The notes beneath the pieces are model-generated. The model did not search any database, was not told where the DNA came from, and worked only from the letters and a program-made list of their open reading frames with translations. Position numbers and translations under genes: made by a program. 32,000 bases of DNA from an uncultured bacterium (GTDB taxonomy: Bacteria; Zhuqueibacterota; QNDG01; DTFT01), in NCBI GenBank assembly GCA_963736115.1, contig CAVTNR010000001.1, forward strand, positions 79,091 through 111,090. Reading direction: 5' to 3'. Position 1 is the first letter of the stretch, and each line of letters begins with the position of its first letter. Below, one piece after another: positions 1 through 32,000 of this stretch.

Positions 1-1518
1 TTTAGAGTCATCACCCGTAATGTCGGTCAGAGCCCGAGTGGCCTGTTTTTTCACTTCTTTCAACCGCTTGAGGAGCTCCTCGAACACCTGGGGGCTGTCG
101 ATTCCCTGCTTGGCCCTTTCCATGATGGATACGAATTCAGTGATGATGGTGTTGACTCTCCGGGTCTCCTCCTGACGCTTGATCAGCATCGAACGGATGC
201 TCTGAAAGAAATGGATCGCCTGCTCGACCTGGGCGAGTAGTTGGGCCGGAACGGGCTGACCCGGATCGGCTGCGGCCTGTCGGGCAAATTGGCGGGTTGT
301 ATCCAGTTCGGAAAGAACCGTATCAATGTCCGGGAGGCGCTGGTTCTGGAACGCGTCGTTGAACTGGCGGAATCGGCAGGCGGCGGTCAGGAAACTGAGA
401 AATGGATATTCTGGAACGTACCGAAGCGCTGTGAATAAAATGCGCTCAGCGCCTGTAAAATCGCCTTGATTCATATGCTGTTGGGCCACTTGGACCTCGT
501 CCCGTACGATTAGGGACTGGAGTTTCTCCCGGTCCGCGGGCGATCCGGCCATCTTCACTTCGGAAATTTTCTTCGAGGAACCAAGCCGACCCAGCAGACC
601 ACCCGTTGAGAACTGCCTGAGATAGGCCTCGAACAACCGGGCTTCAGTGGTTCCCTTGTATCGGTCATCGACCTTCCCGAGCGCCCTCAATGCCCGCCCG
701 AATTCCTCCTTTTTGAAATGCTCGATGGCCGGATGCAGTGCCATGTACAGGAGCTGGGATTCCAGATCGTTTTTCAAGCCGTTCAGAATCGACGGTACGT
801 TGTGCCCGGCGACGCGGATCCCTTCCAGAACGCACTCGTACGCGGCGGCTGGGTTCCGCTGCCCCATCAGGAGGATCGCCTTGAAGGCATAGTATTCGGC
901 GCGGCTTGGATCGAGCTGCATCAGTTCGGACAGCTGGTTGAACAGCATGTTCGCGCTGAGGAGCATGAGAATGGGAAACTTGACGTAAACCTGGCCGCAG
1001 GCTTTCGTCTTCAGCATAGCGATCAGATCGGCGAGCGGTTTTCCCGTATGGGCGCCGTCTATGGAGGCGAGGATCCGCAGGGCGGTGATCTGCGTGCTGA
1101 GCGTTCCGATCGGAGAATCCGAGTTCAGGATGCACAGCGCCTTCAGGTACAGGGCCTCGGGATGGGCTGGTTTCTTGGCCAGGTAGGCATCGAGCTTCTG
1201 AACGGCTTCCTGGTATTCTTTTTTCTGAATGTGCGCTTTCGCCTGCTGCAGCAGTGCGATGTCCACGTCGATGAGACCGCCTACCTGACGGAAGGCATCG
1301 TCCGGCAGTATTTCCCCCAGACGCAGCGACTCATCCGACTTGGCACTGGCGGCCATTTTGTTGAGCTCCGCTTGGACGTCGAAGCCGTTCATCTTGGCCT
1401 TGCTGGGGTCGATGACCGGACCCTTCAGCACGAAACCTTCCTTGAACTCCGGCACCTTAGTGGAGACCTTCATCAACTCCGGTGCTTCAACGAACTGGCT
1501 TTCTTTAACGGCGGTCAT
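1..1518 (-). CDS. TPR-like helical-repeat protein; the C-terminus runs off the left edge of the window
   Basis: Absent from the ORF track because it is open to the edge. Hand translation from the ATG at 1518 gives MTAVKESQFVEAPELMKVSTKVPEFKEGFVLKGPVIDPSKAKMNGFDVQAELNKMAASAK... AAGGGA lies about 8 nt upstream. A TPR-like stretch is present: KEYQEAVQKLDAYLAKKPAHPEALYLKALCIL. No minus-strand ORF ending at 1518 is listed, consistent with an open frame through position 1 (506 codons). The plus-strand ORF 718..1917 is its antisense shadow. Confidence 0.7.
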   Translation of the reverse strand, partial: MTAVKESQFVEAPELMKVSTKVPEFKEGFVLKGPVIDPSKAKMNGFDVQAELNKMAASAKSDESLRLGEILPDDAFRQVGGLIDVDIALLQQAKAHIQKKEYQEAVQKLDAYLAKKPAHPEALYLKALCILNSDSPIGTLSTQITALRILASIDGAHTGKPLADLIAMLKTKACGQVYVKFPILMLLSANMLFNQLSELMQLDPSRAEYYAFKAILLMGQRNPAAAYECVLEGIRVAGHNVPSILNGLKNDLESQLLYMALHPAIEHFKKEEFGRALRALGKVDDRYKGTTEARLFEAYLRQFSTGGLLGRLGSSKKISEVKMAGSPADREKLQSLIVRDEVQVAQQHMNQGDFTGAERILFTALRYVPEYPFLSFLTAACRFRQFNDAFQNQRLPDIDTVLSELDTTRQFARQAAADPGQPVPAQLLAQVEQAIHFFQSIRSMLIKRQEETRRVNTIITEFVSIMERAKQGIDSPQVFEELLKRLKEVKKQATRALTDITGDDSK

Positions 1519-1529
1519 GGAGATTCCCT

Positions 1530-1757
1530 TTATTCTAGATCGATATTCTCAGGCTCCGGCACGTTTTCGAGTAGATGTTCGGCGGACCGCCGGCATAACT
1601 GGTATTCCTTCTCCTGGGTGATATCCGTCAGCTCAAGGATCGAGGATACGACGTTCATCTGTTCCGTCGAGAATTCCTCTGCTTTCGTGACGCTTTCGGA
1701 GCTCACAACCAGCGCTTCGAGCATCTTTTTCCTGTTGAGAGACTGGGTTTTGGCCAT
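1530..1757 (-). CDS. Small (75 aa) acidic helical protein, function unknown
   Basis: The ATG at 1757 is preceded by AAGAGGTGA (strong Shine-Dalgarno) embedded in the last codons of the upstream gene. It sits 3 nt after that gene's stop and 11 nt before the next start, so it looks translationally coupled. Confidence 0.55.
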   Translation of the reverse strand: MAKTQSLNRKKMLEALVVSSESVTKAEEFSTEQMNVVSSILELTDITQEKEYQLCRRSAEHLLENVPEPENIDLE

Positions 1758-1760
1758 GGA

Positions 1761-3659
1761 TCACCTCTTTTTCCTGGTTTCCTTCGGGGCGGCCGGTTTG
1801 ATCCTTCGCGTTTTCGCGGGTGGGCCTGCTTCCAAAAGGAGGATTTCCGCCGGCTCCGGGGTTAAAATACCTTCCTTTTCATCCTCCTCTTCAGGCAGCA
1901 GCACTTCGCCGGTGTAGACCAGAACCCGGTTGACTTTCGCCTCCACCTGATCGTAGGTGTCCTTGATCCGCTGAGTGTTTTCCGAAATCTCTTTCATCGA
2001 TTTTTCCAATTCCTCTTCGGCCTTTTTCCCCTTTCCGGCGGGGTCTTTCGATGCGCCGGCCTTGATCGCGCCGATGATGGCGCCCATCCGCTTACGGATG
2101 AATTCCTGCCGGGTGGAAAGGTTCTGAATGGTCGGCCCTTCGCCGCTGGTCGCCTGATCTTCGGTTATCATTTCCCCAAGGAGATGCCTGAAATGCGGGA
2201 AGGCTTCCAGGCGATGGATCAACTTTTCCTTCAGCTCCTCCTTCAGTACCTGAGGGACGCTTTTATTGTCCAGATAATTATTGACGATCGAAAAGTATGT
2301 TTTGATGGAATCCTTCTGGAGTTCGTCCAGTTTTCTTTCCCGCTTGATGATGAGGTCCACCTCGGGAACTAGCGAGCTCGATTTCTCGAGCATGTCCAGC
2401 GACTCCTCCCGAAGCGCATTGTGGAAGAAGAAATAATCGACCAGCCCCTGAATCAGTTTGGGGTCGGGCATTTCGGAATCGATGGCCATGACCTTGTTCA
2501 GGCGATCACGAAGGCTATCCCGTTCCGCAGGGGTCAGGCCCGATTTTTCGTCTTTTTCGCACCATTCGTGAATCAGGGAGACCGCATGCCAGAGAAGGAC
2601 GTTCCGGATCAGAAGGTCCTTGTCGTCAAGTTTGCGCTCGCCTTCACCCGCGTATTCATCGCCGCCGGATTTACCGGTTTTCGCCTTTTGCGATTGAGGA
2701 TCCCCGTAGTCTTTTTCGAGCTTTTGTACAATACCCATCAGGGGTTTCCGCAGCTGGCTCCGTTCTCCGGAACACCACCGGCAGAGCAGAAGTCCGATTT
2801 CGGCGTTCATCGTCGAACGCTTCTCCTGCGTCGCCCGTGCTTCCGCCGCCTCGAAATATTCCCTGGCCTGGAGGAATTCCTTGTTGAAAAGCGAAACAAT
2901 GCCCAATGTGACCTGGTGATCGCTGATACTTCCGGGAACCCGGTCTGCATGCACGCCCAGACTCCGTACGCGGTCAAAGTACTGAACAGCCTCCTTGATT
3001 TCGCGCTTTTTCCAGTGTTCTTTCCCGAGATTGAAGCAGGCGATGCTCATCAGCTCCTTCGATTTGAGAAAATCCTGGAGTGCATCCTGGTTGGTATCGT
3101 ATATCTCATAAGCGTACTTGTATTTCTCCACTTTTACTTTCGCCCAAAGGTCCAAATACTGAACCGCCGGATCCGATAGGTTTACCCTAGACAGGTCCTC
3201 TATCGTCCCGCTGCAGTCGTCTCGCAGGGCGCGGAGGTAGGCGCGCGCAAAATAGGCCTCATCGAGGTCGTTCTGTTTGAGCCCTGAGGTGATGGCCTTT
3301 GTCAGCAGATCCTCCGCGTCCGTATACTCGGTTCTCCTCTCCTGATCGATGATCCGGAGCGCCTGAAGCAGGGGTTTTCTTTTCTTCGCGGGCTGAATGA
3401 TCGAGAAAAAAAGAATGAGCCCCAGAATCACCAGGATCAGAAAACCGAGCACGGTACCGCCGATCAGGATCAGACTTCTGTCTATTCCGGCGAACAGTCC
3501 CTTTTTCTCTCCGGCTGATTCTTCGGTCAGACCGGTTTCTGCGGCGCCGCGCCCGGAAGGGGATACTGCCGGAGTTCCCGATGGTCCGGTTTCGGGCGGA
3601 ACGGAAGCCGAACTGTCGGCCGGGCCGACGGTTGTCCATGTGTGGTCCGGCTTGAGCAA
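1761..3659 (-). CDS. Single-pass membrane protein with a Pro/Ser/Thr-rich N-terminal stub, one TM helix and a large cytoplasmic TPR-like/helical-repeat domain
   Basis: 632-aa ORF with a TTG start as listed. TM segment LILIGGTVLGFLILVILGLILFFSII is followed by KKRK (positive-inside). Long alpha-helical repeat-like sequence (e.g. EAYFARAYLRALRDD, KEAVQYFDRVRSLG) and a Lys/Glu-rich tail. The true N-terminus is uncertain (see finding on 3527-3814). Confidence 0.75.
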   Translation of the reverse strand: MLKPDHTWTTVGPADSSASVPPETGPSGTPAVSPSGRGAAETGLTEESAGEKKGLFAGIDRSLILIGGTVLGFLILVILGLILFFSIIQPAKKRKPLLQALRIIDQERRTEYTDAEDLLTKAITSGLKQNDLDEAYFARAYLRALRDDCSGTIEDLSRVNLSDPAVQYLDLWAKVKVEKYKYAYEIYDTNQDALQDFLKSKELMSIACFNLGKEHWKKREIKEAVQYFDRVRSLGVHADRVPGSISDHQVTLGIVSLFNKEFLQAREYFEAAEARATQEKRSTMNAEIGLLLCRWCSGERSQLRKPLMGIVQKLEKDYGDPQSQKAKTGKSGGDEYAGEGERKLDDKDLLIRNVLLWHAVSLIHEWCEKDEKSGLTPAERDSLRDRLNKVMAIDSEMPDPKLIQGLVDYFFFHNALREESLDMLEKSSSLVPEVDLIIKRERKLDELQKDSIKTYFSIVNNYLDNKSVPQVLKEELKEKLIHRLEAFPHFRHLLGEMITEDQATSGEGPTIQNLSTRQEFIRKRMGAIIGAIKAGASKDPAGKGKKAEEELEKSMKEISENTQRIKDTYDQVEAKVNRVLVYTGEVLLPEEEDEKEGILTPEPAEILLLEAGPPAKTRRIKPAAPKETRKKR

Positions 3660-3844
3660 GACCTGTGCGCGCCCTTCGTCCGGGCGAGTTCGTCGGCCAC
3701 CGACGGAGCGGCGAGTATCGCCACAAGGAGAAGGATCGTCAGCCCCATGGCTTTCGTCCGGCTATTTTGTCCCATCGGAAGTTTGTTTCGGAAAATCCGC
3801 CTTGATCGCCGCATTTTCCCCTCTTTCCTTTTTTCTGGATACCG

Positions 3845-5038
3845 TTACCGTCTGCAGTCTGTCAGCATTTTCTCGAGCTGGAGGATCCGGCTGCCGAAAC
3901 GCTCGATGACCGCGGGCTCGACGCGCCGCGGATCCGTGACGGGATATCGTGCGACCGTGGACAAGGCGTTTTTAATCCCGTCCAGGAAGGCGCGAGCAGC
4001 CTCGAACTTGCCGGGGCTCTCCGGGATTTCACCGATCAACGCTTCCGAGTACAGCAGGGTCCGCGGAAATTCCCACCACATGAAGGTTGGCTGCCCTCGG
4101 GACGGGTCCCCACTTGCACTGGATGAGTAGTAAAGGTACGGGTGAAGAACCTGCTGGGCATTGACAAACTGGCCCTTTTTAATGAAATAGGACGTCACTT
4201 CCATGAACAGTCTGTCCCTATCGGTGGTTGGAAGCGCATGATAATCACGCCACGCCATGGCGATCATCTTGGCCGGGCTGTCCATCTGAATCTTCGACGG
4301 CGCGTCGGTGTGGTCCGGACCGGTCCAGTTGAGAAGAATCGCGAGCTGCAGCCGGTGGGATTCGATGTTCCCGGCGGGAGCCGATTGGACGGCCCGTTCG
4401 AGCCATTCCAAGCCAGCAACCGCGTCCTGAAGATCCTCCTTTGCGATCCTTCCGGCTAGTAGAAGGAGATCGAACCGGCTCTCTCCCAGACAGACATCCC
4501 CGATGAAATCGATGGCCTTTTGAAACCGTTTTTTAGCCCGGAGGTCTTCCACGACGGCTCGGGGATCCAGGCGGTCTGCGAGGTCCCGCAGCTTGACGGC
4601 CGCCTGGGCTGGATCCGCGTCTGCTCGGATCCGGGGATCTGGATCCAGTGCGGTCCGTACCATGTGCACGACTTCCGGATACAGATCGACCCGGTCGATC
4701 CAGATAGGCATTCTTTTCGTGAGCCCCTCCGGCTCGAACAGGGTGCTGGACGCCCCTTTTTGAATGAGCAAGAAGGGGTCTTCCGTCGCGCTCCATGAAA
4801 AGAGGCATTGCATCATCATAACCCCGCACACGTAAATATCGAGGTTTCGGTCCCGGATCATTTTTCGGTTCCCCCGGATGAGTTCGGGGGCCAGAAATGG
4901 GATTCGGGAGGGTTCGGCGAGCAGTGTTTCGAAACGCGGCCAGTACCCCAGGACGGAAGCGCCAGCAGAACCGGCCACTGATCCTTGAATACGATGTCCG
5001 CAGGCATGGGGTAATTCACTTCCCCGTTCGTCTCCCAC
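3845..5038 (-). CDS. Protein-kinase-like C-lobe plus TPR-like C-terminal domain; probably the 3' part of a frameshifted pseudokinase gene spanning 3845..5427
   Basis: Kinase subdomain VIII/IX signature RIPFLAPELIRGNRKMIRDRNLDIYVCGVMMMQCLF, then LDPDPRIRADADPAQAAVKLRDL (subdomain XI-like), then helical repeats. An internal ATG at 4861 forms an ATGA overlap with the stop of ORF 4858..5427. Confidence 0.7.
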   Translation of the reverse strand: MGDERGSELPHACGHRIQGSVAGSAGASVLGYWPRFETLLAEPSRIPFLAPELIRGNRKMIRDRNLDIYVCGVMMMQCLFSWSATEDPFLLIQKGASSTLFEPEGLTKRMPIWIDRVDLYPEVVHMVRTALDPDPRIRADADPAQAAVKLRDLADRLDPRAVVEDLRAKKRFQKAIDFIGDVCLGESRFDLLLLAGRIAKEDLQDAVAGLEWLERAVQSAPAGNIESHRLQLAILLNWTGPDHTDAPSKIQMDSPAKMIAMAWRDYHALPTTDRDRLFMEVTSYFIKKGQFVNAQQVLHPYLYYSSSASGDPSRGQPTFMWWEFPRTLLYSEALIGEIPESPGKFEAARAFLDGIKNALSTVARYPVTDPRRVEPAVIERFGSRILQLEKMLTDCRR

Positions 5039-5427
5039 CAGACGGGCAGGGAACCGGCGACCTTCGACATGAGGAAAAGGCGGTTCCGTGGGTCGGCTTC
5101 GGACAGCAGTTCGAGCATGCTGCGTCCGCTTGTTTCATAGGCCACGTAGAAAAACAGGCTGCCCTGCACCGTCACGTCGCCGGTCTCCACGATCTGCGCC
5201 AGTCCCTGCCTTTGCGGTTTGCCGATCCACCCGTCTATTTCCGAGCGTTGGGTGAGCGACAGGACATCGTCGATCGGAAGGAGGCGGAAATACCGACTTC
5301 CGGATGCCTCCCGGTACACATAACCCCGCAGGCTCGGGCCCACGTATTCGAGCCGCTCGCCGGCCCTGCCGACCTGTAGCGTCGCGGGCGGGTTCAGCGG
5401 GTCATTTTTTCGCTTTTGCGTAGACAT
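4858..5427 (-). CDS. Protein-kinase-like N-lobe fragment lacking catalytic residues; probably the 5' part of the same frameshifted pseudokinase gene
   Basis: 189-aa ORF overlapping the Hsp70 3' end by 26 nt. N-lobe-like beta-rich sequence (LEYVGPSLRGYVYREASGSRYFRLLP). NYPMPADIVF sits where HRDxKxxN is expected and ALPSWG where DFG is expected. The last ~30 aa (GTGRVSKHCSPNPPESHFWPPNSSGGTEK) look like out-of-frame sequence. Confidence 0.6.
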   Translation of the reverse strand: MSTQKRKNDPLNPPATLQVGRAGERLEYVGPSLRGYVYREASGSRYFRLLPIDDVLSLTQRSEIDGWIGKPQRQGLAQIVETGDVTVQGSLFFYVAYETSGRSMLELLSEADPRNRLFLMSKVAGSLPVWWETNGEVNYPMPADIVFKDQWPVLLALPSWGTGRVSKHCSPNPPESHFWPPNSSGGTEK

Positions 5428-7444
5428 CTTCGAGTGTGTCTCCCAAGTCTTCCAGCTTCTCGCCGGTAATTCCGGAATTCAGGGCTGATATGAAATCGCT
5501 GAACGCCTTGAGTAGGTTTGTGTCCGTCTCCTGGAGCAGATGTTTCTGCGTCCGACGGACGATGGATTTGAACTGTTCCGGAACGGGGAGTGCGGGTTCC
5601 GGAATTCCTCCCGCGGCCGGTGCTCCCTGGGCAGGCTCGGGCTTTACCGGAGTGGTGGGGGAACCGGGAGAAGGCGTCGCCGGTCCCGGCGCTGGCTGTT
5701 GCGGCTGGGATCCGGGTACGGCTCCAGGCTGCGGGGGAGGGGTGAAGCCGCCCGGACCGGATGGACCCGGCTGCGGGGGGACCTGGACACTGCCGTGGGC
5801 ATATAGACCGAGCAGTGTGTTTCGCTTCTGGATCAAGGCGGCGTCTCCCCCGATGCCCGTCTTCTGCTCGAATTTCATTTCATACTGCTTCCCGGTCTGC
5901 ACGTGGAAGACCACCATGGTCAGGAGTCCGTTGACGTCGAGCTTGAAAGTCACTTCGAACTTGTGAAATCCTTCCGGCTTGGGATCGACGTTCTCGATGG
6001 TGAGCTCGCCGATCGGTGTGTTCTCGAAAACAAACTCGCCTTCTCCCTGAAATACAACCGCTTTGATCCGCGTCGCATTCTCCTGATTGCCGAATATGTC
6101 GTTCTTCACTTCGATTGGGATGTTGCTGCCTTGAGCGATCATCCGCACGCACCTACCGCCCGCGACGCCGACCCCGAGCGAATGCTCCGTGATCAGGCGG
6201 ATCTGCTGGTCGTCCACGGACTGGGCGTTCAATTTCAACGATTCATTCCGGCGCTTGATGTCGAATTCGCCCTCGGTGGGAGCGAATCGCTTTGCCAGTA
6301 TCGCCGCGCCCCGGGCGACCACGGTGTCCGGATTGAGTTCGCTTTTGACGAAGCTGTCATCCTTCTTGAAATAATCGAGGAGCATTTCCTTGACCTTGGG
6401 GATTTTGCTAGAGCCGCCGACCAGGAGAATCGCATCCACCTGGTCCCGGTCGATCCCTTTCTGCTCCCGGGCGTTGCTGATGGCCTTGTCGACGTAAGTG
6501 AGGGACTTGCGAAGGAGTCCGTCGATCAGCGACAGAAAGACATCTTTCGTCAGGACCAGCTGGAGCTCGTGTTTAATTGATTCGAGCGACATCGTCGCGG
6601 ATTCGTTGTAACTCAAGGCGATTTTGGCCGGTTCCGAGACCGATTTGATCTTCGCCTTCGCCAGAGGGTCCGCGCCTACATCGATTCCCTGTTTGCGGAG
6701 CTCTTCGACCGCCCATTCCACGATGGCATTGTCGAAATCCCCACCGCCGAGACGCGGATCGCCGGCCGTCGCGATGACGTTCAGATTGCCCGTTTCAACC
6801 TGGATGATGGACACGTCAAAGGTTCCGCCCCCGAGATCGTACACGAGATAGGTTTTTTTCTCCGTCTCCTCCCGGTCCACTCCGTAGCAGATGGCCGCGG
6901 CTGTCGGTTCCGGGATGATCTGCCTCGGGTACAGCCCGGCGAGCAGGGCGGCTTCTTCAGTCGCTTTCTTCTGCGGCTCCATGAAGTAGGCGGGCACGGT
7001 CACCACCGCGTCGTGGATTTCCTCCCCGATCTCCCGCTCGGCCACTTCTTTCATCTTCATCAGGATGAACGCACTGATTTCCTGGGGCAGCATCCATTCC
7101 CCTGCAAAAAACACTTCCACAGGTTGTCCGATCTTGCGGGCGTTCTGGGCCCGGAATCGTTCCAGGGCGTTGTTTTTCTCTGAGAACAGCTCGCCCATTT
7201 CCCGCTTGATTTCTATCACGGTGTCCTCGGGGCGGACGGGGCAATTTCGCTTGGCAGCAGCGCCCACGATGACCTTGCGGAGCATCTGGTCCGTGCTGAC
7301 GACCGAAGGGGTCGTTTCGGGATTGGTGTCCGATTCGGGGTTCTTGATGATTTCAGCCTGTTCAGTATAGGTATTATAAGAAGCCACGGCCGAATACGTC
7401 GTACCGAGATCGATACCGATCACCTTGTGCATTTTGTCGTTCAT
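5402..7444 (-). CDS. Atypical Hsp70/DnaK-family ATPase: complete NBD and beta-sandwich SBD, with the helical lid replaced by a Pro-rich linker and a short helical tail
   Basis: [33 protein letters not shown] and [13 protein letters not shown] are Hsp70 actin-fold signatures. [10 protein letters not shown]...[13 protein letters not shown] is the SBD-beta. The ~70-aa [11 protein letters not shown]...PEPALPVPE linker follows. ATGA overlap with the upstream GrpE-like ORF at 7441-7444. Confidence 0.95.
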
Positions 7445-7800
7445 GATTTTGCTCCTTGACTGGTGTGTGCGGCGCTGTCCTTGTGCGAACGGTTTTTATC
7501 ACGGTCCGAAACCGGACGGGTCTTCCCGATAATGACCCGGCAGGGCCTAACCAGAACCTGGCCCGCCCTGTACCCGGATTGTTCGACCCGGATCACCTTT
7601 CCCTCATCACCTTCGCCGTACCCGAGGCATTCCATGGTCAGAGGATCGAAATCAGCCCCGGGCTGAACCTCGAAAGGGGTATAACGGAGGGCCTGGGTGA
7701 TGCCGGTGAGAAGATCGAGTATGGAGTCCGTATTTTTCAGGAACTCCTTCTCGTTTTCGCTGCCTGAGTAATGACGTTTCATCGACTTCAGGGATTCCAT
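7441..7800 (-). CDS. GrpE-like nucleotide-exchange factor, C-terminal (beta-domain) part; frame is open upstream of the listed start
   Basis: DFDPLTMECLGYGEGDEGKVIRVEQSGYRAGQVLVRPCRVIIGK matches the GrpE pattern FDPxxHEA...V..GY...G.VLRPA.V.V. Upstream in the same frame the sequence reads DRKEFIGRSTFNALIPAMESLKSM, which is like the GrpE LLPVLDNLERAL helix. Confidence 0.75.
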   Translation of the reverse strand: MESLKSMKRHYSGSENEKEFLKNTDSILDLLTGITQALRYTPFEVQPGADFDPLTMECLGYGEGDEGKVIRVEQSGYRAGQVLVRPCRVIIGKTRPVSDRDKNRSHKDSAAHTSQGAKS

Positions 7801-8260
7801 GGCCGGGATCAGCGCGTTGAAAGTCGAACGTCCGATGAATTCCTTGCGGTCTGAAACGCAGGTTCTCCTTGAACCGTTCCAGCTCCATGCCGACCGAACG
7901 GGAGAGGGACTCCTGGGCGGCCTGAAGCGACGAAACGGTTGCGATGACCTGCGTTATTTTACCTTCCAGATTGGAAACCATCCGGTAGAGGCCGACCATG
8001 TCTTCGGCCAGTTCTCCCAGGGTTTGGAGCAGGTCATCATTCTTACCGTCGCGGATTCCCGCCCCCTTGAAAAAATCGACCGTGAGGGTCTGTTTGGACA
8101 GATCCAGATCGATCGGTTCCTCACTCCCTGCGGCGCCCACCGGGTTCTGCCCGACGGCGGTTTTCGATTCCTTCCTGGGGGAGGTCCCGCTGGCCGATCC
8201 GCCGGATGGTTCGTTGTGCGGAATGTCCGGCTGATCCGCACTGGGCTTTGTTTTGTTCAT
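7652..8260 (-). CDS. GrpE-like protein, N-terminal disordered and coiled-coil part; overlaps 7441..7800 by 149 nt in another frame (probable frameshift)
   Basis: ATGA overlap with the stop of the J-like gene at 8257-8260. A disordered Ser/Gly/Pro N-terminus is followed by the coiled coil LQAAQESLSRSVGMELERFKENLRFR, resembling the GrpE xxFxNxRKR helix. After that the frame reads Arg/Pro/His-rich nonsense. Confidence 0.6.
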   Translation of the reverse strand: MNKTKPSADQPDIPHNEPSGGSASGTSPRKESKTAVGQNPVGAAGSEEPIDLDLSKQTLTVDFFKGAGIRDGKNDDLLQTLGELAEDMVGLYRMVSNLEGKITQVIATVSSLQAAQESLSRSVGMELERFKENLRFRPQGIHRTFDFQRADPGHGIPEVDETSLLRQRKREGVPEKYGLHTRSSHRHHPGPPLYPFRGSARG

Positions 8261-8877
8261 GGTTCCTCCTCGTCGATCCGCTTGTTGTATTCAAAATCCG
8301 TGTTGAAAATCCTCCGGGTCAGGTCGCTGGGATGAAAGCAGTGGAGATTTTTGATTTCTTCGAAAAAACGGGAGAGTTCCTTGCGGATATAGATCAGCTT
8401 TGTCCGGTAACCGCTCAACACGTCCGCCCGGAAATCCTCGAAGCGGAGCAGGATGCAGGGAGGGTTAGACAGGTCGTACTTTCGTCGATCCTCTCCTTTC
8501 TCCAGCAAGATCAGGTTGATCTCGTTCACTTCTTTGTCGATGCGCAGGATGTCGGATTCGATTTTTTTGAAATCGGGATCGGCCTTAAGGGCTTCCTTCT
8601 CCAGATCGAAGATTTCCCCGTTCAGTTTTTTCAGGGCCGCGGGATCGGATTTTTCGGAGTTTTTCTTCATGGTGTCCAGCCGGCTTCTGGCGGATGGAAG
8701 ACCGGGGACGGCCTCGAAGATCTTGGCCTGCCGCGTGACAAGCGCCTGTCTTTGAGCATTCAGAGACTGCAAAAATTCTCCCTTGGCGTCCATGATTTCA
8801 TTTGCGGTCGCGTCCGGGGTTAGTCCCAGTTTGGCGTAGGAAGTGTTTCGGCTGAGGATCACGGGGTAATTGAACAT
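8257..8877 (-). CDS. J-like co-chaperone candidate with a split J-domain and DPD in place of HPD (tentative)
   Basis: 206-aa ORF with AGGGAGA upstream of the ATG at 8877. The N-terminal SYAKLGLTPDATANEIMDAKGEF resembles J-domain helix I/II. KEALKADPDFKKIESDILRIDKEVNEINLILLEKGEDRRKYD aligns by eye to KLALKYHPDKN...FKEINEAYEVLSDPEKRxxYD. It is the first gene of the Hsp70 operon. Confidence 0.55.
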   Translation of the reverse strand: MFNYPVILSRNTSYAKLGLTPDATANEIMDAKGEFLQSLNAQRQALVTRQAKIFEAVPGLPSARSRLDTMKKNSEKSDPAALKKLNGEIFDLEKEALKADPDFKKIESDILRIDKEVNEINLILLEKGEDRRKYDLSNPPCILLRFEDFRADVLSGYRTKLIYIRKELSRFFEEIKNLHCFHPSDLTRRIFNTDFEYNKRIDEEEP

Positions 8878-9094
8878 AAGACACCTGATCTCCCTGTGAA
8901 TGGACGACTTGTCGTTGTTTTCGATGATGGGGTTCGATAAGGAGATGGAAAGGAGGCGTTATCTGTCGGCCATCCCATAGGCATGAATAAAAAAAGGAAT
9001 GGCCCACCGCTGACTCGGAATTTGCAGCGTTGGAAATCCTCACTCCCTCCCCAGAATAATGGTTTTCGAAAAAACGAAAAGAAGAGCCCGACAA

Positions 9095-9345
9095 ATCTCT
9101 ATAAATAAATAATAATAAAACGATGAGTATACAGGTATAGGAATAATGTTTGCAAAATATTGATTATTTGTTTGAAAATCAAGAAGAATGTCCGGCATTT
9201 CGACATTAAAAGGCATAATATCCAGAATATATAATCATATAGAGTTTGAAAGCGAGCGGGATTCCGCTGTCGCCAAAATGTAAACAATTATAATTAAACA
9301 GATTACGAAACAACAGAAAGATATTCCTCATTCTGTGTCCGCAGG
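9095..9345. other. AT-rich island (~250 bp) between the two minus-strand operons; likely the promoter/regulatory region for the Hsp70 operon
   Basis: Runs such as ataaataaataataataaaacgatgagtatacaggtataggaataatgtttgcaaaatattgattatttgtttgaaaatc contrast sharply with the GC-rich flanks. No credible ORF lies here (only a 62-aa Phe/Ile/Leu-rich ORF). It sits 220-470 nt upstream of the ATG at 8877. Confidence 0.6.
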
Positions 9346-9436
9346 GGTGGTTCTGGCATTTTTCCAAATTACTATCAATAGTAACGACATCTGAAGAAGA
9401 GGAAATAATCCAGGCGTTTGAAATCAGCCCACGGTT

Positions 9437-10570
9437 TTATTTCAATTCCACGATCTCCCGCACCACCGCCTCGGCCGCTTTCTCCAGGGGCCCGGCGGCC
9501 GTTCTTACGGACGGGTCCTGCGCCAGGGTTTCCCCGACTTTTTCCAGCCTGCTGAAATTCCCGAAAATGATTTTGTAAAGGGGTACCTTCGACCCGTAAT
9601 TTCCCCAGTCCACCTCGGTCTTCATGAACCGGCTGAACGAACCGGAAAGACGGATGAACAGGCTTAAAGCCTTCTTGGGCAGTTCGTTCAGTACGACACC
9701 GTCCAGATCCCTCACTTTCGACAGAAATTCGCGGATGGCCGGTTGCGGATAGACCTCCTCGAAGAACCGGATGAAACGGGCGCTCGTCACGCCGCGGAGC
9801 TCGCACAAATTTCCGCTCAGGCATAGATAGAGAAGTTCGATGGCCTGGTGGAAAACCGGAAGATCAAGGTGTTTCGCCGTCAGAATTCCGGGGCGCTGGT
9901 CGTCGTGCCAGGCGGCTTGAAAGACGGTTTTGCCGACGTCGAGCACGAAATCGTCCACTTCCCGTTCCGTGGCGGCGGTCCCGGATTCGGCGAGCAGTTC
10001 TCCCGCGCCTTCCCGGAACCGGGAGAGGCGGAGAAAATACTGCTCGTGGCCGGCGGACATCAGCCGGATGAACCGGTCGTCGATCATGGGATAGCCCGGA
10101 CTGACGTAGAGATCCTCGACGATCAGGCTGTATTCCGCCCAGAAATCCTCATGGACCCGGCACAGGTAGTAGACGGGCATATCGTGCGGAGTCAGTCGGA
10201 TGTCCAGGTAGACCCGGTAATTGCATGCGTCCCGGATGCACGACTGCAGACCTTCCTGATTCGTGAGGCGGACGGAATGATCGCCGTAAGGCGACCGGAT
10301 TGTGACTTCGCGCGTGAGGGTCTCCGAGATGTCGGACAGGATCCGGCTGGATCCTCCCGCGTTTTCGAGGGTGAGACGATGGGCGTCGTAAGTCCGGATG
10401 GCCTCGAGAAGCGGGGCCAGGATCGATCGGGGGTCCATGTCCCAGGTCGAATGACCCGGCACGTACCCGTAACGGCTGTGCGAGGTCGATCCTTCCTCGA
10501 AATCTCCGTCCCGCGTCCGGTCGGAGCCGGTAGCAACGGCGCCTTCGGTGTCCCAGTATTCATCGGTCAT
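9437..10570 (-). CDS. Hypothetical 377-aa protein, last gene of the ClpB-like/MoxR/vWA operon; no motif recognised
   Basis: The ATG at 10570 is preceded by GGGGAG and overlaps the vWA gene stop by 11 nt. Composition is non-repetitive and typical of coding sequence. Confidence 0.7.
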   Translation of the reverse strand: MTDEYWDTEGAVATGSDRTRDGDFEEGSTSHSRYGYVPGHSTWDMDPRSILAPLLEAIRTYDAHRLTLENAGGSSRILSDISETLTREVTIRSPYGDHSVRLTNQEGLQSCIRDACNYRVYLDIRLTPHDMPVYYLCRVHEDFWAEYSLIVEDLYVSPGYPMIDDRFIRLMSAGHEQYFLRLSRFREGAGELLAESGTAATEREVDDFVLDVGKTVFQAAWHDDQRPGILTAKHLDLPVFHQAIELLYLCLSGNLCELRGVTSARFIRFFEEVYPQPAIREFLSKVRDLDGVVLNELPKKALSLFIRLSGSFSRFMKTEVDWGNYGSKVPLYKIIFGNFSRLEKVGETLAQDPSVRTAAGPLEKAAEAVVREIVELK

Positions 10571-12710
10571 GTTTCGACTCCCCGTTTTTCGTTACCGAAC
10601 GGTTGCGTTCCCGGATGCAGGAGGCCACGTATCGGCCGATTTTCCGCGCCACCGCGGCCGCGTCGTTGAGCTCGTCGGGAAGCACGGGAATAATTTTATC
10701 CACTTGTTTTTCCAGCCCGGTTTCCCGATCGATCCCAAGCGCGACCATGGTGGTGTGCAGTTTCCCGTTTGATTCCGCGTTCAAGGACTCGAATACGGCC
10801 TGCACTTCCACTATCCCGGACTTGGAATTCTGGAAGGACCGGTTCCATTGGCAGTCGGTGATTAAAATCAGGTACATCATGCGTCCGCGGGCGAGGGCTT
10901 TGGCCTCGCGCATGATGAAGGCAATGGAGACAGCGTCTGACTGAACGCCGGTTCCGGTATCCGGGAGTCCGGGCAGCGCCCGGAGCGCGTCCTGCTTGTA
11001 CAGCACGGGCGTTTTCTTCGGATGGTAAATCCACTGAACCAGGGGGCCCGTCATGCCCGGCCGGACCTCTCCGCTGTGGTACAGGCCGGCAAGAAGCTGA
11101 ATTTCGCTCCGGGACGTGGATTTCAGCCAGGCCGCGGTCAGGAGTTTCAGCATGTGCATCTGACGGCTGTTCAGCGATCCCGATCCGTCACAGGCGATGG
11201 CCAGCACCGGCCGGCCGCGACGGTCCGCCCTTTCCCGCATGCGGTACCGTTTAAACACGGCCGCCGAAAAATCCGCCAGGGACAGCCGTGCGGTGTCCAG
11301 TGCCCCGGATGTGCGCAAACGGTCCGTTTCGGGAAGCTTCTGCACGTTCGGATAGAGGCTTCGGCGCAGAGCTTCAGTGACGGGGAGGGCTTCCTCCAGC
11401 AGCTTTTGACAGGCGGACATGTCCTCTGAAAGCGGCACCGGTCGGTCGAATATCTCGGCAGTGGTGGTCTTGCCGTCAGCCAGGGGCACTTCGATCTGGC
11501 GTCCGTCGGACGGGCTGCCCTCCATCAGGCCGCCGTCGAAGATTTTAAAATGAAGCATCCGCTCGACCAGATCGGACCTGATGTCCTCCCAGGACCGTTG
11601 ACGGATTCCGGCAGCGCGCAGGGTCATGATGAATTTGACGAGCGCGGTTTCCTCCTGGTCGGTCCGTCCCAGGGGATCCTCCTTGGTCCCGGACAGGAGG
11701 TTGTTGACCATTACCATGGTCAACCGTTCGACGATACTGTCCGGATCGATCAGCAGGGGCGGTGTGAGCCGTTCCAGCGGATGGAGTTCCGATTCCCCGG
11801 AAGGCTCGCCGGCTTCCACGTCAAATACTTCGTCTAGTACGTCGAGGGCCTCAGGGTGTCCGGGTTTAGCCGAGTTGAGGAACTGAGACCGTTCCGGATT
11901 TATTTTCCGGGGAGCCTTTACCATCGGCGCGAGCGCCTTGACCAGGTCGCGGCCCCACTGGTTCCCCAGTTCCAGGAGGAATCCCGGTTCCGTCCGGTTC
12001 AGTGCCTCGATATAGGGGCGAGACGTCAAGACGGTCTTTTCCAGCATCATAGCCGTGACAGGATGCAGTTCCAGCCGCCTGAAATCGGGCAGAAGCTCCC
12101 CGTAGAGCACGCCGTTGAAAACCACGTCGATCACGGTGCGGAACCGGAGATCCTGCTGAGACGCCATGAAGAGACGGTAGATCTCGAGCGCGGAGAAGGC
12201 GGGATCGGACGACAGTTCCTGGAGCAGGATCCGGATGCGAATGGCCTTCTCGATGATTTTCACCAGAAGGAGCCGGTTTTGACCATCCGTCTCGGTGCCT
12301 TCCGTCACCGTCTCATCTTCGAGCATGAGAATCAGGGAAATCACCTTTTCGCTGAAAACAGCTTCATATTCCAAATATCCGGTCAGTCCGATGGCGGCGT
12401 ACGCCGCCGCGACCGCCGGGTACTGCGTGTACAGGCAGCTGAGCTGGGGTTTCACGCAAAAGGGCGATTCGGGATCGGGATTCCGCCCGGCGAGCCTGTG
12501 AACCGCCGTCTGGATCTGGGTCATCCGGCGGTAGAAGAGGTTCTGGGCCGGGAGCCTCTCCGAGAGATCCATGTTTGGACGGAACGCATCCCCCAGGGTA
12601 ATTCCCGCCCAGTCCGATTTCGACTTGCGCTTCCGGTAATAGGAGGAATACCATCCGCGGGTCGAGTGATCATCGTCCCGGTTTGAAGCGTTTTTCCCGG
12701 CTGTTGTCAT
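10560..12710 (-). CDS. Large protein with a C-terminal von Willebrand factor A (vWA/MIDAS) domain; CbbO/NorD-like architecture
   Basis: 716 aa. MIDAS DxSxS motif in PVLAIACDGSGSLNS (about 11176-11190). Downstream TGTGVQSD and LILITDCQ fit the remaining MIDAS positions. Long helical N-terminal region. Lies immediately downstream of a MoxR-class ATPase gene. Confidence 0.85.
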   Translation of the reverse strand: MTTAGKNASNRDDDHSTRGWYSSYYRKRKSKSDWAGITLGDAFRPNMDLSERLPAQNLFYRRMTQIQTAVHRLAGRNPDPESPFCVKPQLSCLYTQYPAVAAAYAAIGLTGYLEYEAVFSEKVISLILMLEDETVTEGTETDGQNRLLLVKIIEKAIRIRILLQELSSDPAFSALEIYRLFMASQQDLRFRTVIDVVFNGVLYGELLPDFRRLELHPVTAMMLEKTVLTSRPYIEALNRTEPGFLLELGNQWGRDLVKALAPMVKAPRKINPERSQFLNSAKPGHPEALDVLDEVFDVEAGEPSGESELHPLERLTPPLLIDPDSIVERLTMVMVNNLLSGTKEDPLGRTDQEETALVKFIMTLRAAGIRQRSWEDIRSDLVERMLHFKIFDGGLMEGSPSDGRQIEVPLADGKTTTAEIFDRPVPLSEDMSACQKLLEEALPVTEALRRSLYPNVQKLPETDRLRTSGALDTARLSLADFSAAVFKRYRMRERADRRGRPVLAIACDGSGSLNSRQMHMLKLLTAAWLKSTSRSEIQLLAGLYHSGEVRPGMTGPLVQWIYHPKKTPVLYKQDALRALPGLPDTGTGVQSDAVSIAFIMREAKALARGRMMYLILITDCQWNRSFQNSKSGIVEVQAVFESLNAESNGKLHTTMVALGIDRETGLEKQVDKIIPVLPDELNDAAAVARKIGRYVASCIRERNRSVTKNGESKHDR

Positions 12711-12725
12711 GGCGTATCATCCCAC

Positions 12726-13739
12726 TTAAAAAAGGTTGCCCTGTATGGTCGTGGTTTCGTCTTCCTCCATCTTCAGACCGAAGACCTGGTTGAAAACGCT
12801 GTGGTTCAGCTTCCGGTCCTCCAGGCTGGCATTGCCCATCAGGGTGGTCTGGGTGATCTGCTGAAGGCTCAGGTGGGGCATGGCGCCGGCCATCCGCAGA
12901 AATGCCAGGTACCCGTAAATGGAAGGCGGCGGAACGGATTGAAGCCTCCCCTCGACACGGTGTTTTCGGATTTCCTGGCCCATCGCGACCACCTTGACGA
13001 TCAGGTCCCTTTTTAACTCCGACGCATGGGTCTCGCGGACCAGATGCTGGAGGACCAGAATCTCGAGATCGGCCGGAAGGTAGTCGAGCGTGATGTTCAT
13101 CGAGAACCGACGTTTCAAGGCGTCATCGAGAGTGACCAGAGTGTGGGTCGATTCGTTTTCCGCCTGGTAATTGCTGTCGGAGATCCATGTGATGAATTCA
13201 CCGCGGATGGTGTTGCCGTCGGGGAGCAGAATATGCCCCCGGGTCATCAGGTCGAGAAGGCCCCCCTGCACGCTCGAAGAATGAACCCGTCCCATCTCCC
13301 TCAGCCAGACCAGTGGGTAATTTGCGTCTGTGGACGCCTCCGCGTCCTTCAGGGATTCGACCAGTTTGCTCGGCTCGTCGTACGTGGTGCCCCCCTTGAG
13401 CGAACGCCGCTGGTACAATTCACCGGGCGTTTCGTAGACGGCCATTTCGACGGGATACACCTTCAGGAGTTTGACGGGAAGCCCGAGCCGGTTGCAGACA
13501 TGGCTGAAGTTTTCCGGCACCCGGTACAGCGCCTCGATCAGGGACGTTTTGGCACTGCCGGTCGGTCCGCTCAGATGGATGAATTCATGCGAGGCAATGC
13601 CGTACACGAGCGATTCCAGGATCCATTTCAGGATGAAAAGGGGATTGCCGCCGGGCGCGGGAAGCAATTCGATCAAATCCTCCGCGCCGGCCTTCCGGTA
13701 CGCTTTTTCCGCAGCGATGTGAAATACCTGTTTCGACAT
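12726..13739 (-). CDS. MoxR/CbbQ/NorQ-class (AAA_5-like) AAA+ ATPase with a non-canonical Walker B
   Basis: Perfect AAGGAGGA RBS 5 nt upstream of the ATG at 13739. Walker A is GPTGSAKT (13545-13568). LVWLREMGRV sits where hhhhDE is expected. GGLLDLMTRGHILLPDG and LDDALKRRF match the MoxR sensor/Arg regions. Confidence 0.85.
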   Translation of the reverse strand: MSKQVFHIAAEKAYRKAGAEDLIELLPAPGGNPLFILKWILESLVYGIASHEFIHLSGPTGSAKTSLIEALYRVPENFSHVCNRLGLPVKLLKVYPVEMAVYETPGELYQRRSLKGGTTYDEPSKLVESLKDAEASTDANYPLVWLREMGRVHSSSVQGGLLDLMTRGHILLPDGNTIRGEFITWISDSNYQAENESTHTLVTLDDALKRRFSMNITLDYLPADLEILVLQHLVRETHASELKRDLIVKVVAMGQEIRKHRVEGRLQSVPPPSIYGYLAFLRMAGAMPHLSLQQITQTTLMGNASLEDRKLNHSVFNQVFGLKMEEDETTTIQGNLF

Positions 13740-13756
13740 GGCGTCCTCCTTATTGT

Positions 13757-16024: not shown

Positions 16025-16077
16025 ACGTTCTCCTGTTCTGGGTGATCCAGCCACCCGATCCGGATAAGGACAAAAAA

Positions 16078-16095
16078 AAGGCCAGTTTTATAATG
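16078..16095 (-). promoter_or_regulatory. Weak sigma-54-like -24/-12 element upstream of the ClpB-like/MoxR/vWA operon
   Basis: The minus strand reads cTGGCCtttttTTGTcc. GG and G are correctly spaced against TGGCAC-N5-TTGC, but the invariant C of the -12 GC is a T. It lies about 55-70 nt upstream of the ATG at 16024 and next to a divergent sigma-54-activator-type gene. Confidence 0.2.
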
Positions 16096-16143
16096 ACCTG
16101 ACCGGGTTGCAGTTAGGCGACGCATGGGGTTGAGTTTTCCCGG

Positions 16144-16172
16144 TTGATTTATATGGGACAATGCACTAAATT
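16144..16172 (+). promoter_or_regulatory. Sigma-70-like promoter candidate for the regulator/NUDIX/RelA-SpoT operon
   Basis: TTGATT (16144-16149), 17-nt spacer, TAAATT (16167-16172), about 60 nt upstream of the ATG at 16232. A back-to-back minus-strand candidate TTTACA-N18-TATAAA (16177..16148) overlaps it. Confidence 0.3.
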
Positions 16173-16231
16173 GTAAATAATACCGCGTGCAGATCAACTG
16201 CCGGACCCAAACACCACCCCGCGGGAGGATC

Positions 16232-17911: not shown

Positions 17912-18352
17912 ATGAATTCGATACGACCGTTCTCGCTCTCCATTAAAGGCCTTATTTTCAACGCCGATGGGCGCTGCCTGATTCTGAAACGATCGACGCT
18001 GAACAGAAATTACCCGGAGAAGTGGGAGCTTCCGGGCGGGAAACTGAATCCCGGTGAGTCGTTCGCTGACGCGTTGTGCCGGGAGGTTTCGGAGGAAACC
18101 GGCCTGCATATCGAGATCGACCATCTGGCGGGCGCGGTGGAATCGGAGCTCCCCGATTGGAGAATCGTGCATCTGGTCATGACCGCCCACACGATACCGG
18201 GTGAAATCCGGCTGAGTTCGGAACACACGGATTACGCCTGGGTGGCGATAGACGATTTGGCGGAGTTGGATATGCCGGAACACTTCCTCCGGTTCATCCA
18301 TGAGTACCGTAGAAAGGAGGGACTCCATGCCGGTGCGTCGCGGCCTCGTTAA
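17912..18352 (+). CDS. NUDIX hydrolase
   Basis: The Nudix box GX5EX7REUXEEXGU is present as GGKLNPGESFADALCREVSEETGL. 146 aa. It starts 24 nt after the regulator gene and overlaps the start of the next gene. Confidence 0.9.
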   Translation: MNSIRPFSLSIKGLIFNADGRCLILKRSTLNRNYPEKWELPGGKLNPGESFADALCREVSEETGLHIEIDHLAGAVESELPDWRIVHLVMTAHTIPGEIRLSSEHTDYAWVAIDDLAELDMPEHFLRFIHEYRRKEGLHAGASRPR

Positions 18353-21122: not shown

Positions 21123-21175
21123 TTATGGATAGCTTCGGAAAACTCTTCCTTCCGTCCAGAATTCGGGAGGTTCCC

Positions 21176-25990: not shown

Positions 25991-26055
25991 GCCTGCGGCT
26001 CCACATCGGACTCCGCGACGGCCGCATCCTGTCCCGTCCTGAAGGACCCAGCCGC

Positions 26056-28341: not shown

Positions 28342-28415
28342 GGGGGTTCCCTGCGCCGGAACCGGGCCGGCTCCGGCAGCCGCGACGATCCATCCCATCC
28401 TGAACGAAGACGACG

Positions 28416-30107: not shown

Positions 30108-30115
30108 GCCGCTGA

Positions 30116-31537: not shown

Positions 31538-31635
31538 ACCGGCGGCCGGGCCCGGACACGGAACCTGCGGTTTCCGCCCGGATGCGCAGCCGGAGGAAAT
31601 AAAATCCATGCAATGAAGGGAGCCATCCGAAAGTC

Positions 31636-32000
31636 ATGAGCGCCATGAAAAGACGCACCTCCTCGCGGACCGCCGTCCTGCTGATCCACTGTCCGGATCA
31701 GAAAGGGCTTGTGCTCGCAGTGACCGATTTCCTCTACAAGAACAACGGCAATGTCGTGTATCTGGATCAGCACGTGGACCCCGAACGACGGCTGTTTTTC
31801 ATGCGGATCGAATGGGAGCTCTCGGATTTCGCGATCCCGGACGATAAAATCGGAGAATTTTTCGGGGTTCTGATGGCCAAGAAGTACCGCATGAAATGGC
31901 AGTTGTACTTCTCGGACGAAAAGCCCCGGATGGCCGTGTACGTGTCCACGCTGTCTCACTGTCTGTACGACATTCTGCACCGAATGCATTCGGCCGAGTG
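31636..32000 (+). CDS. purU: Formyltetrahydrofolate deformylase, N-terminal (ACT domain) part; continues beyond the right edge
   Basis: Not in the ORF track (open to the edge). Hand translation gives MSAMKRRTSSRTAVLLIHCPDQKGLVLAVTDFLYKNNGNVVYLDQHVDPERRLFFMRIEWEL...KPRMAVYVSTLSHCLYDILHRMHSAE. This matches the PurU pattern (LL..CPD..G.VA.VT.FL, FFMR, S...HCL.DLL.R). Confidence 0.85.
   Translation, partial: MSAMKRRTSSRTAVLLIHCPDQKGLVLAVTDFLYKNNGNVVYLDQHVDPERRLFFMRIEWELSDFAIPDDKIGEFFGVLMAKKYRMKWQLYFSDEKPRMAVYVSTLSHCLYDILHRMHSAE

Follow-up and report, generated by a model that had tools for sequence, protein, structure and literature searches.

Paralogues derived from the bacterial chaperone DnaK have been described in a 2026 review as largely unexplored 'dark matter' (PMC13580251). 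NTPase chaperones have already been proposed to act as thresholding devices in conflict systems, a theme that includes combinations of HSP70, GrpE and DnaJ/TPR proteins (Kaur et al. 2020, PMC7159879). Here, we analyse a stretch of 32,000 nucleotides (nt) of contig CAVTNR010000001.1 from an uncultured bacterium of the Zhuqueibacterota (hereafter the window, to which all coordinates refer unless a related locus is named), in which positions 1–8877 hold seven minus-strand genes, among them an Hsp70 paralogue with its own GrpE and a J-like protein. These seven genes are the 5′ two-thirds of a cassette of 9–10 genes, roughly 15–19 kb in length, that in related genomes ends with a TIR gene and the gene of a giant TPR protein, and that is conserved widely yet, as it appears, has not been described. 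We consider it probable (about 0.6) that the cassette is a conflict system of the anti-phage or abortive-infection type, in which the Hsp70 module would control a TPR-scaffolded TIR effector.

The cassette shares with the canonical DnaK system an Hsp70 that has an SBD-beta and the full set of ATPase motifs, a factor of the GrpE family and a J-related partner in the same operon. It differs in that its Hsp70 is lidless, with an ITEHSLG linker and an acidic tail, in that the J-like protein is devoid of the HPD motif and carries a coiled-coil insertion, and in that pseudokinase, TPR and TIR genes always accompany the set. In Escherichia coli, the Hsp70 paralogue HscC is not known to have a GrpE, and its J partners keep the HPD motif. 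By analogy, the cassette may be likened to HscC with DjlB and DjlC, which also represents a specialised Hsp70 paralogue with a reduced lid and adjacent dedicated J partners (PMC13580251 and general knowledge); HscC, however, has no pseudokinase, TPR or TIR partners.

Two classes of conflict system offer further comparisons. The GAP1-N2 GTPase-centric systems (Kaur et al. 2020, PMC7159879), which are built on a TRAFAC GTPase with zinc ribbons together with GAP1 and FNIII-repeat components, likewise combine Hsp70, GrpE and J-domain/TPR components, and actinobacteria and planctomycetes are carriers in both cases. Yet no GTPase, FNIII or tubulin Pfam match was found in any cassette gene, whether of the window or of the related loci, and the cassette has instead a pseudokinase, a protein of 75 amino acids (aa), a TIR protein and a giant TPR protein. 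The MoxR-vWA 'ternary' systems described in the same study share the principle of an NTPase chaperone that thresholds an effector, and a MoxR-like AAA_5 protein and a protein with a DGSGS motif are encoded in an operon upstream of the cassette; this operon, however, is separate from the cassette, is not conserved with it and gave no VMAP or Pfam vWA match.

As in Thoeris and in the TIR-TPR pair BcTir/BcTpr, a TIR domain with a conserved catalytic Glu is encoded beside TPR proteins, and a SLOG protein, which has the signal-receptor fold of type I Thoeris, lies near the cassette in the window and in one related locus (L014). In Thoeris, a TIR protein (ThsB) is paired with a cognate, signal-activated effector of ThsA type (SLOG or Macro with SIR2 or TM). 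Unlike Thoeris, the cassette core has no ThsA-type effector and includes an Hsp70 machine and a pseudokinase as integral parts, and its TIR protein reaches 22 bits on the Thoeris type III model (E=5e-5), for which the cut-off is 220. A further parallel may be drawn with plants, where the maturation of NLRs by HSP90-SGT1(TPR)-RAR1 and the ZAR1-RKS1 pseudokinase decoys likewise bring together an ATP-dependent chaperone and its TPR co-chaperone with a pseudokinase and an immune output of TIR type. This likeness would be one of analogy only. The chaperone of the cassette is an Hsp70 and not an Hsp90, and the core has no NLR or STAND NTPase.

A conserved cassette that includes a TIR gene

Sixteen loci besides the window were compared, nine of them obtained from Hsp70 matches (47–83% identity) and the rest seeded from the kinase-like protein, for which a 5-sequence alignment yielded 4 genome and 6 metagenome loci. 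The same gene order was present in all 16, including 9/9 of the Hsp70-seeded neighbourhoods. A sequence-only reading of the window had listed the genes in the order J-like, GrpE-like, Hsp70, kinase-like, transmembrane TPR-like, 75-aa and TPR protein, an order that the coordinates of the open reading frames (ORFs) bear out. The same reading would have been abandoned had the kinase-like and TPR genes not been linked to this Hsp70 clade in other genomes, and the linkage was found in every locus examined.

Beyond the seven genes of the window, all 14 loci with enough downstream sequence continue into the TIR gene and the giant TPR gene (more than 1100 aa), the defining partners that the edge of the window had concealed from the sequence-only reading. 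The 'WEL' catalytic Glu of the TIR domain is retained in nine of the ten aligned loci, and on the C-terminal side of the domain the TIR protein has about 440 aa that are uncharacterised. Among the carriers are Streptomyces sp. NPDC059009, Deltaproteobacteria bacterium SM23_61, a Planctomycetaceae metagenome-assembled genome (MAG) and several metagenomes, and the distribution is patchy, with occurrences in Streptomyces, Deltaproteobacteria, Planctomycetaceae and Thermoanaerobaculia; the viral contigs searched held no relative. Genes of conflict type recur beside the cassette, comprising NACHT with WD40, RHS, SLATT with RyR, TPR-S-trypsin, SLOG-RyR, and MoxR with a vWA-like protein.

The J-like, kinase-like, membrane, 75-aa and TPR proteins are without a model in NCBIfam. 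In the open-access literature we found no account of a cassette that joins Hsp70, pseudokinase, TPR and TIR genes, although an earlier description may exist outside open-access text; what comes nearest there is the HSP70-GrpE theme of the GAP1-N2 systems. The cassette gives one clade of DnaK derivatives a fixed and testable genetic context, a ten-gene TIR cassette found from Streptomyces to Deltaproteobacteria and Planctomycetes.

A lidless Hsp70 with its own co-chaperones

The sequence-only reading had proposed a specialised module and not housekeeping proteostasis, and this proposal was upheld: the Hsp70 misses the cut-offs of the DnaK equivalogs NF001413 and TIGR02350 (387.9 bits against 648, and 381.5 against 822), it has no recognisable lid, and its clade occurs in the same cassette in all nine look-ups. 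It likewise falls below the cut-off of the HscA equivalog models. The match to PF00012 (E=5e-118) covers model positions 1–501 of 599 only, and the PDB alignments to DnaK and Hsc70 stop near residue 535, as expected if the canonical helical lid is missing. Past the SBD-beta, a Pro-rich linker (about 70 aa) leads into an unrelated helical tail (about 60 aa).

Across 120 members of the clade, the ATPase motifs GIDLGTT, K80, E179, DLGGGTFD and GGSSKIP are more than 97% conserved. Two further features are specific to the clade: the interdomain linker ITEHSLG, and the acidic motif ALNxG..LEELGDxLxDxY in the C-terminal tail. The tail also occurs as an independent module, with three separate tblastn matches in L012 (9330–9963) that are apparently three tandem copies, and with a separate ORF of 111 aa in L007 (11893–12228). 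In two loci, a gene just upstream of the cassette encodes a second short Hsp70 (505–525 aa, 26–29% identical; L007 4779–6356 and L008 7037–8554), which recalls the second Hsp70 without a peptide-binding domain that is found in some GAP1-N2 neighbourhoods (PMC7159879).

The GrpE-like gene holds a true GrpE domain, as had been surmised: its C-terminal ORF matches PF01025 (E=5.1e-9) with 36.5 bits against a gathering cut-off of 25.8. The frame of the gene is split. The J-like protein is more divergent. Neither the window protein nor any of 8 members gave a Pfam DnaJ match; a 21-sequence profile (A7), when compared with the PDB, matched the J-domain of DNAJA1 (E=5.9e-5) and several other DnaJ chains, and a 148-aa Streptomyces homologue is labelled 'J domain-containing protein' by NCBI. 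The gene can therefore be regarded as a probable J-domain relative, in keeping with its first description, though one without the HPD motif. The HPD of DNAJA1, the tripeptide between helices II and III, aligns with non-HPD residues, and the loop that would carry it is replaced by a coiled-coil hairpin in the long forms and by 'RGAS' in the Streptomyces forms.

A separate and nearly invariant motif, H-P-x-D-L-T-R, is present near the C-terminus of the J-like protein. Of its residues, D185 and R188 do not vary across the 21-sequence alignment, where H182 is nearly invariant, and in an alignment of 8 sequences none of the three varies. In the AlphaFold2 model (predicted local distance difference test, pLDDT, of 80), the protein forms a helical hairpin, and the C-terminal H-P-x-D motif (pLDDT <50) is predicted to be flexible; a Foldseek search with this model was uninformative, returning coiled-coil matches only (E>0.1).

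A pseudokinase and the helical proteins of the cassette

When its profile was compared with the PDB by sequence, the kinase-like family gave weak matches to designed TPR proteins only and none to kinases, so that a fold search was needed. The AlphaFold2 model of the orthologue P0121, built on a 92-sequence alignment, has a pLDDT of 94.8 and a predicted template modelling score (pTM) of 0.88. In Foldseek, it matched PknB, PknA and CDPK1 with a probability of 1.0, E of about 2e-7 and target-normalised TM scores (TMt) of up to 0.62 (0.53–0.62 for PknB and PknA). Among the 92 members, the Lys of the VAIK motif is Arg in 88, the Asp position of HRD is L, F or I, and that of DFG is A, P or G, while the APE motif with its Glu, the alpha-F Asp and R268 are retained. 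Because the VAIK Lys is replaced and neither the HRD nor the DFG Asp is present, we assign the protein to the pseudokinases with a Hanks fold, as the sequence-only reading had anticipated. Its C-terminal half consists entirely of helical repeats in the model. The family comprises 214 representative clusters among 1.84 billion representatives, with no spill-over into ordinary kinases.

The membrane-anchored protein is encoded in every related locus that reaches its position and gave weak matches to TPR_2 and IF140-TPR. Its orthologue has one transmembrane segment (aa 110–141), which follows a signal-like segment. About 530 aa of the protein make up a helical domain on the cytoplasmic side. The 75-aa protein matched no family in Pfam or PADLOC. 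It is 75% identical to the orthologue in L001, and 10 other DNA-bearing loci have a protein of 37–71% identity at this position; a gene of 74–77 aa is called there in four further look-up loci, and tblastn found no match in L006 or L012. The TPR protein of the window is 74% identical to residues 1–506 of the 699-aa L001 protein, and its homologues in related loci match TPR_19, TPR_16 and ANAPC3.

A probable chaperone-controlled TIR system and its alternatives

Judged by its sequences, the cassette couples an Hsp70 predicted to be ATPase-competent and lidless to a GrpE, a probable J relative without HPD, a pseudokinase, four proteins of helical or TPR type and a TIR domain that keeps its catalytic residue. 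The conflict reading draws on the conserved synteny, the conservation of the TIR Glu, the conflict-type neighbours, the patchy distribution and the conservation of the Hsp70 motifs. In such a system, the TIR domain would be the only obvious enzymatic output, either by cleavage of NAD+ or by production of a signal derived from ADP-ribose (ADPR). The private Hsp70/GrpE/J-like cycle could act as an ATP-driven switch on the TPR-scaffolded TIR complex, either keeping the complex inactive or assembling it upon a trigger. The pseudokinase and the TPR proteins may provide sensor, decoy or scaffold surfaces, and the conserved acidic tail of the Hsp70 is a candidate TPR-docking element.

A receiver for the TIR-made signal may be encoded nearby. 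In Thoeris of type I, the product of the TIR is sensed by a SLOG domain, as stated in a preprint (bioRxiv 10.64898/2025.12.03.692087), and the SLOG and RyR neighbours of the cassette are for this reason a lead for the downstream component. RyR or SLOG-RyR proteins are encoded beside the cassette in L005 (3621–4061), L007 (1377–4082), L014 (15–1766) and L016 (6524–8293), and the L014 protein is 47% identical to an 844-aa protein of the window over the SLOG-RyR part. By analogy with Thoeris, the SLOG-RyR protein could be the receiver or an effector.

Several observations weigh against a chaperone-controlled TIR conflict system. The TIR and giant TPR genes lie outside the window, and their presence in the source genome is deduced from synteny with L001; TIR domains, moreover, can have a purely scaffolding role. 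The cassette proteins showed no obvious domain for sensing or for binding nucleic acids, and PADLOC-DB v2 gave no meaningful match to a core protein except the TIR protein, which matches the candidate singleton PDC-S66 (E=1.9e-9); matches of the others were absent or marginal, with E no lower than 1.9e-4. As the J-like protein is missing the HPD motif, it is doubtful that it stimulates the Hsp70 ATPase in the canonical way, and the Streptomyces cassette is without GrpE and carries the short J-like form. Whether the chaperones hold the effector off or assemble it is a matter of pure inference, and the window copy itself, with three frameshifts, may do nothing.

A non-immune role would fit part of the same evidence. 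Of the ten genes, five code for long proteins of helical or TPR type, which are possible demanding clients of a chaperone, one component is anchored in the membrane, sigma-54 activators are encoded nearby in the window, L001 and L017, as would suit a regulated physiology, and the core is without a model in the defence database. The Hsp70 set might thus be a dedicated biogenesis chaperone that folds the large helical-repeat proteins and the membrane component of a signalling or envelope complex, with the TIR domain as an interaction module. We regard this as unlikely, as it leaves unexplained why the catalytic Glu of the TIR domain is kept in nearly all aligned loci, why conflict-type genes recur next to the cassette, why its spread across phyla is patchy and how the window copy tolerates three frameshifts. 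Slightly less probable is that the Hsp70 and the pseudokinase are baits that mimic the DnaK and the Ser/Thr kinases of the host, so that binding of a phage protein that hijacks DnaK or targets kinases releases the TIR effector. In plants, NLRs are established as guards of pseudokinase decoys, and the pseudokinase of the cassette has retained its fold and surface scaffold residues with the catalytic residues gone. There is also a bacterial precedent, in that host DnaJ is reported to mediate phage sensing by an NLR-related protein (PMC12169576). The Hsp70, for its part, retains its ATPase and SBD-beta and has its own co-chaperones; yet the strong conservation of the ATPase motifs suggests real work over passive mimicry, and a guard or decoy role rests on analogy, with no known trigger.

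Two explanations remain. That Hsp70, GrpE and a J-domain relative share one operon could mean that this is the housekeeping dnaK operon of an unusual lineage, an explanation we can practically dismiss: the Hsp70 scores below the DnaK equivalog cut-off and has no lid, the J-like protein has no HPD, the GrpE gene of the window is frameshifted, and the set is always embedded with pseudokinase, TPR and TIR genes. The cassette, moreover, occurs in Streptomyces species, which carry a canonical dnaK-grpE-dnaJ-hspR operon. The sequence-only reading had further seen, in the cassette and a ClpB-like gene 4.9 kb upstream on the same strand, a full if divergent analogue of the DnaK-DnaJ-GrpE-ClpB set, so that the Hsp70, J-like and GrpE proteins would form a disaggregase with the ClpB-like AAA+ protein. 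This we find very improbable, and the claim was not sustained. Disaggregases of the ClpB/Hsp104 type have two AAA+ rings (NBD1 and NBD2) and dock Hsp70 through a coiled-coil M-domain. Only aa 452–680 of the ClpB-like protein align to Clp proteins, namely to the D2 ring of ClpA, ClpB and Hsp104; no match to NBD1 or the M-domain was found, the N-terminal 450 aa are matchless, and Walker B is degenerate, with 'SD' in place of 'DE' in the ClpA alignment. The protein is thus a single-ring, D2-type AAA+ protein, and the operon that it heads ends 559 nt from the J-like gene and forms a separate transcription unit. The four-gene block adjoins the cassette only in the window and in L001, the closest relative examined; tblastn found no match to it in the 6–10 kb upstream of L002, L005, L006, L007, L008, L009 and L012, and L013 and L014 hold only about 1.5–2 kb of upstream sequence. 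It is chiefly this lack of co-conservation that speaks against a bi-chaperone machine.

Beyond the conflict reading as such, we tentatively suggest an undescribed class of immune system, in which an Hsp70-GrpE-J-like cycle, a pseudokinase bait and TPR scaffolds might gate a TIR NADase or signal generator, with RyR and SLOG proteins as possible receivers. If so, the cassette would be a bacterial counterpart of the chaperone-dependent, decoy-guarded TIR immunity of plants, and one clade of the 'dark matter' DnaK derivatives would for the first time have a function assigned to it. Should the cassette serve in defence, it would use Hsp70 chemistry as an immune switch instead of for proteostasis, the pseudokinase would join the repertoire of bacterial immune components, and the cultured carriers (Streptomyces) would be open to experiment. 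It also offers a clean case in which to study how an Hsp70 operates with an HPD-less J-like partner.

The window copy of the cassette

The features of the window and of the complete cassette are given in Table 1. The window was compared with the orthologous locus L001, from a Zodletone-spring MAG, whose proteins are 57–83% identical to those of the window.

Table 1. Features of the window and gene order of the cassette (cassette genes without coordinates are known from the related loci)
Feature	Position	Strand	Cassette gene	Remarks
J-like protein	8257–8877	−	1	206 aa; probable J-domain relative, HPD-less, with coiled-coil hairpin insertion
GrpE-type nucleotide exchange factor	7441–8260	−	2	Frameshifted; ORFs 7652–8260 (N-terminal coil) and 7441–7800 (GrpE domain)
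Hsp70 paralogue	5402–7444	−	3	680 aa; NBD, SBD-beta, Pro-rich linker, acidic helical tail, no canonical lid
Pseudokinase (Hanks fold) with C-terminal helical/TPR-like repeats	3845–5427	−	4	Frameshifted; ORFs 4858–5427 and 3845–5038
Membrane-anchored helical/TPR-like protein	1761–3814	−	5	Frameshifted; signal-peptide-like N-terminus, one transmembrane helix
75-aa acidic protein	1530–1757	−	6	Conserved, fold unknown
TPR protein	1–1518	−	7	N-terminal 506 aa, truncated by window edge; full length about 500–700 aa
M48 metalloprotease			8 (sometimes)	HETGH; in three loci (L001, L004, L005), ahead of the TIR gene
TIR protein			9	About 565–590 aa (833 aa in one locus)
Giant TPR protein			10	About 1200–1660 aa
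Intergenic region upstream of cassette	8878–9436			559 nt, AT-richer; putative own promoter
Neighbouring four-gene operon	9437–16054	−		ClpA/B-D2-like AAA+ 765 aa, MoxR-like AAA_5 337 aa, 716-aa protein, 377-aa protein
ClpB-like gene	13757–16054	−		Heads the four-gene operon; Pfam AAA_2
RelA_SpoT-TPR-SLOG-RyR protein	18300–20834	+		844 aa; Pfam RelA_SpoT, LSDAT_prok (SLOG), RyR; outside the core

Relative to L001, three of the seven cassette genes in the window are interrupted by single-base insertions or deletions, all of which the sequence-only reading had overlooked. In the GrpE gene, one additional nucleotide near 7857 places the N-terminal coil and the GrpE domain in different frames; when joined, the two frames give one protein that is collinear with the intact 269-aa orthologue of L001. 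The kinase-like gene is one C short in a run of C near 4952. In the gene for the membrane-anchored protein, one nucleotide is missing near 3670, so that the N-terminal 48 aa (from the ATG at 3814) are out of frame with the ORF at 1761–3659. The orthologues of the frameshifted genes are unbroken in L001 and L004, and the GrpE orthologues of the look-up loci are intact, with 185–269 aa. Programmed frameshifting was considered and rejected, because the shifts affect three different genes and the orthologues in L001 and L004 are intact.

The window copy is either inactivated and decaying, or mis-assembled. The upstream four-gene block aligns to L001 in single, uninterrupted segments (only 6.6 kb verified by homology), and the domain sets of the plus-strand genes of the window are complete, with no disruption evident. 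A second broken copy occurs in L002, on a contig of 2.1 Mb (contig_7523), where the J-like gene (8697–9320) has an in-frame stop and the TPR gene is split (15544–17239); these breaks, too, reflect either decay or assembly errors.

Most of the gene junctions described by the sequence-only reading could be reproduced. ATGA stop/start overlaps are present at 8257–8260 and 7441–7444, spacers of 3 and 11 nt separate the last three genes, and the Hsp70 and kinase-like genes overlap by 26 nt (5402–5427). The latter overlap has the same length in L001 and is 32–38 nt in L002 and L009. A further ATGA at 4858–4861 had been taken for another stop/start junction, and proved instead to be a by-product of the frameshift near 4952, where the premature stop of the shifted kinase-like frame falls over an internal Met codon that is no start. 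The 338-aa protein on record from the source contig (P0123) begins at this internal Met.

The gap in front of the J-like gene probably carries the cassette's own promoter, to judge by its sequence. Sigma-70-like matches lie on the minus strand in this region at 9155–9126 and 8900–8873, and the GC fraction is 0.487 across 9001–10000, which holds part of the gap. A search of the window with the sigma-54 promoter consensus gave 5 matches against 9.3 expected by chance, none of them well placed, and the upstream intergenic region had no match in Rfam.

Neighbouring genes in the window

The operon upstream of the cassette looks like an unclassified MoxR-type system. Its 716-aa protein bears the DGSGS motif, which is MIDAS-like, and gave no Pfam match (including vWA) and nothing in a PDB search; the 377-aa protein had no match. 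A sigma-54 enhancer-binding activator is encoded divergently from this operon, at 16187–17887 on the plus strand. Such an activator is also present in L001 (1–1452), and L017 has one of response-regulator form upstream of its cassette (4340–5692). The RelA_SpoT part of the 844-aa protein matches the PADLOC candidate PDC-S33 (E=1e-17).

The GC fraction is about 0.49–0.63 over positions 1 to about 21000, where the cassette lies together with the MoxR block and SLOG gene, and about 0.62–0.68 over 22000–32000, a step that is compatible with the left part of the window being an acquired island. On the plus strand, the right part encodes a secreted protein of 1621 aa with about 15 PKD domains (21125–25990), followed by a LysM-FecR-Glucodextran_B protein (26056–28341). 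An overlap of 160 nt between the ORFs of these two genes vanishes if the Met of the signal peptide, near 26056, is taken as the start of the second. Next come two histidine kinases, at 28416–30107 and 30116–31537. The last ORF starts on the plus strand at about 31640 and runs off the right edge at 32000; its N-terminus is ACT-domain-like, and by eye we take it to resemble formyltetrahydrofolate deformylase (PurU).

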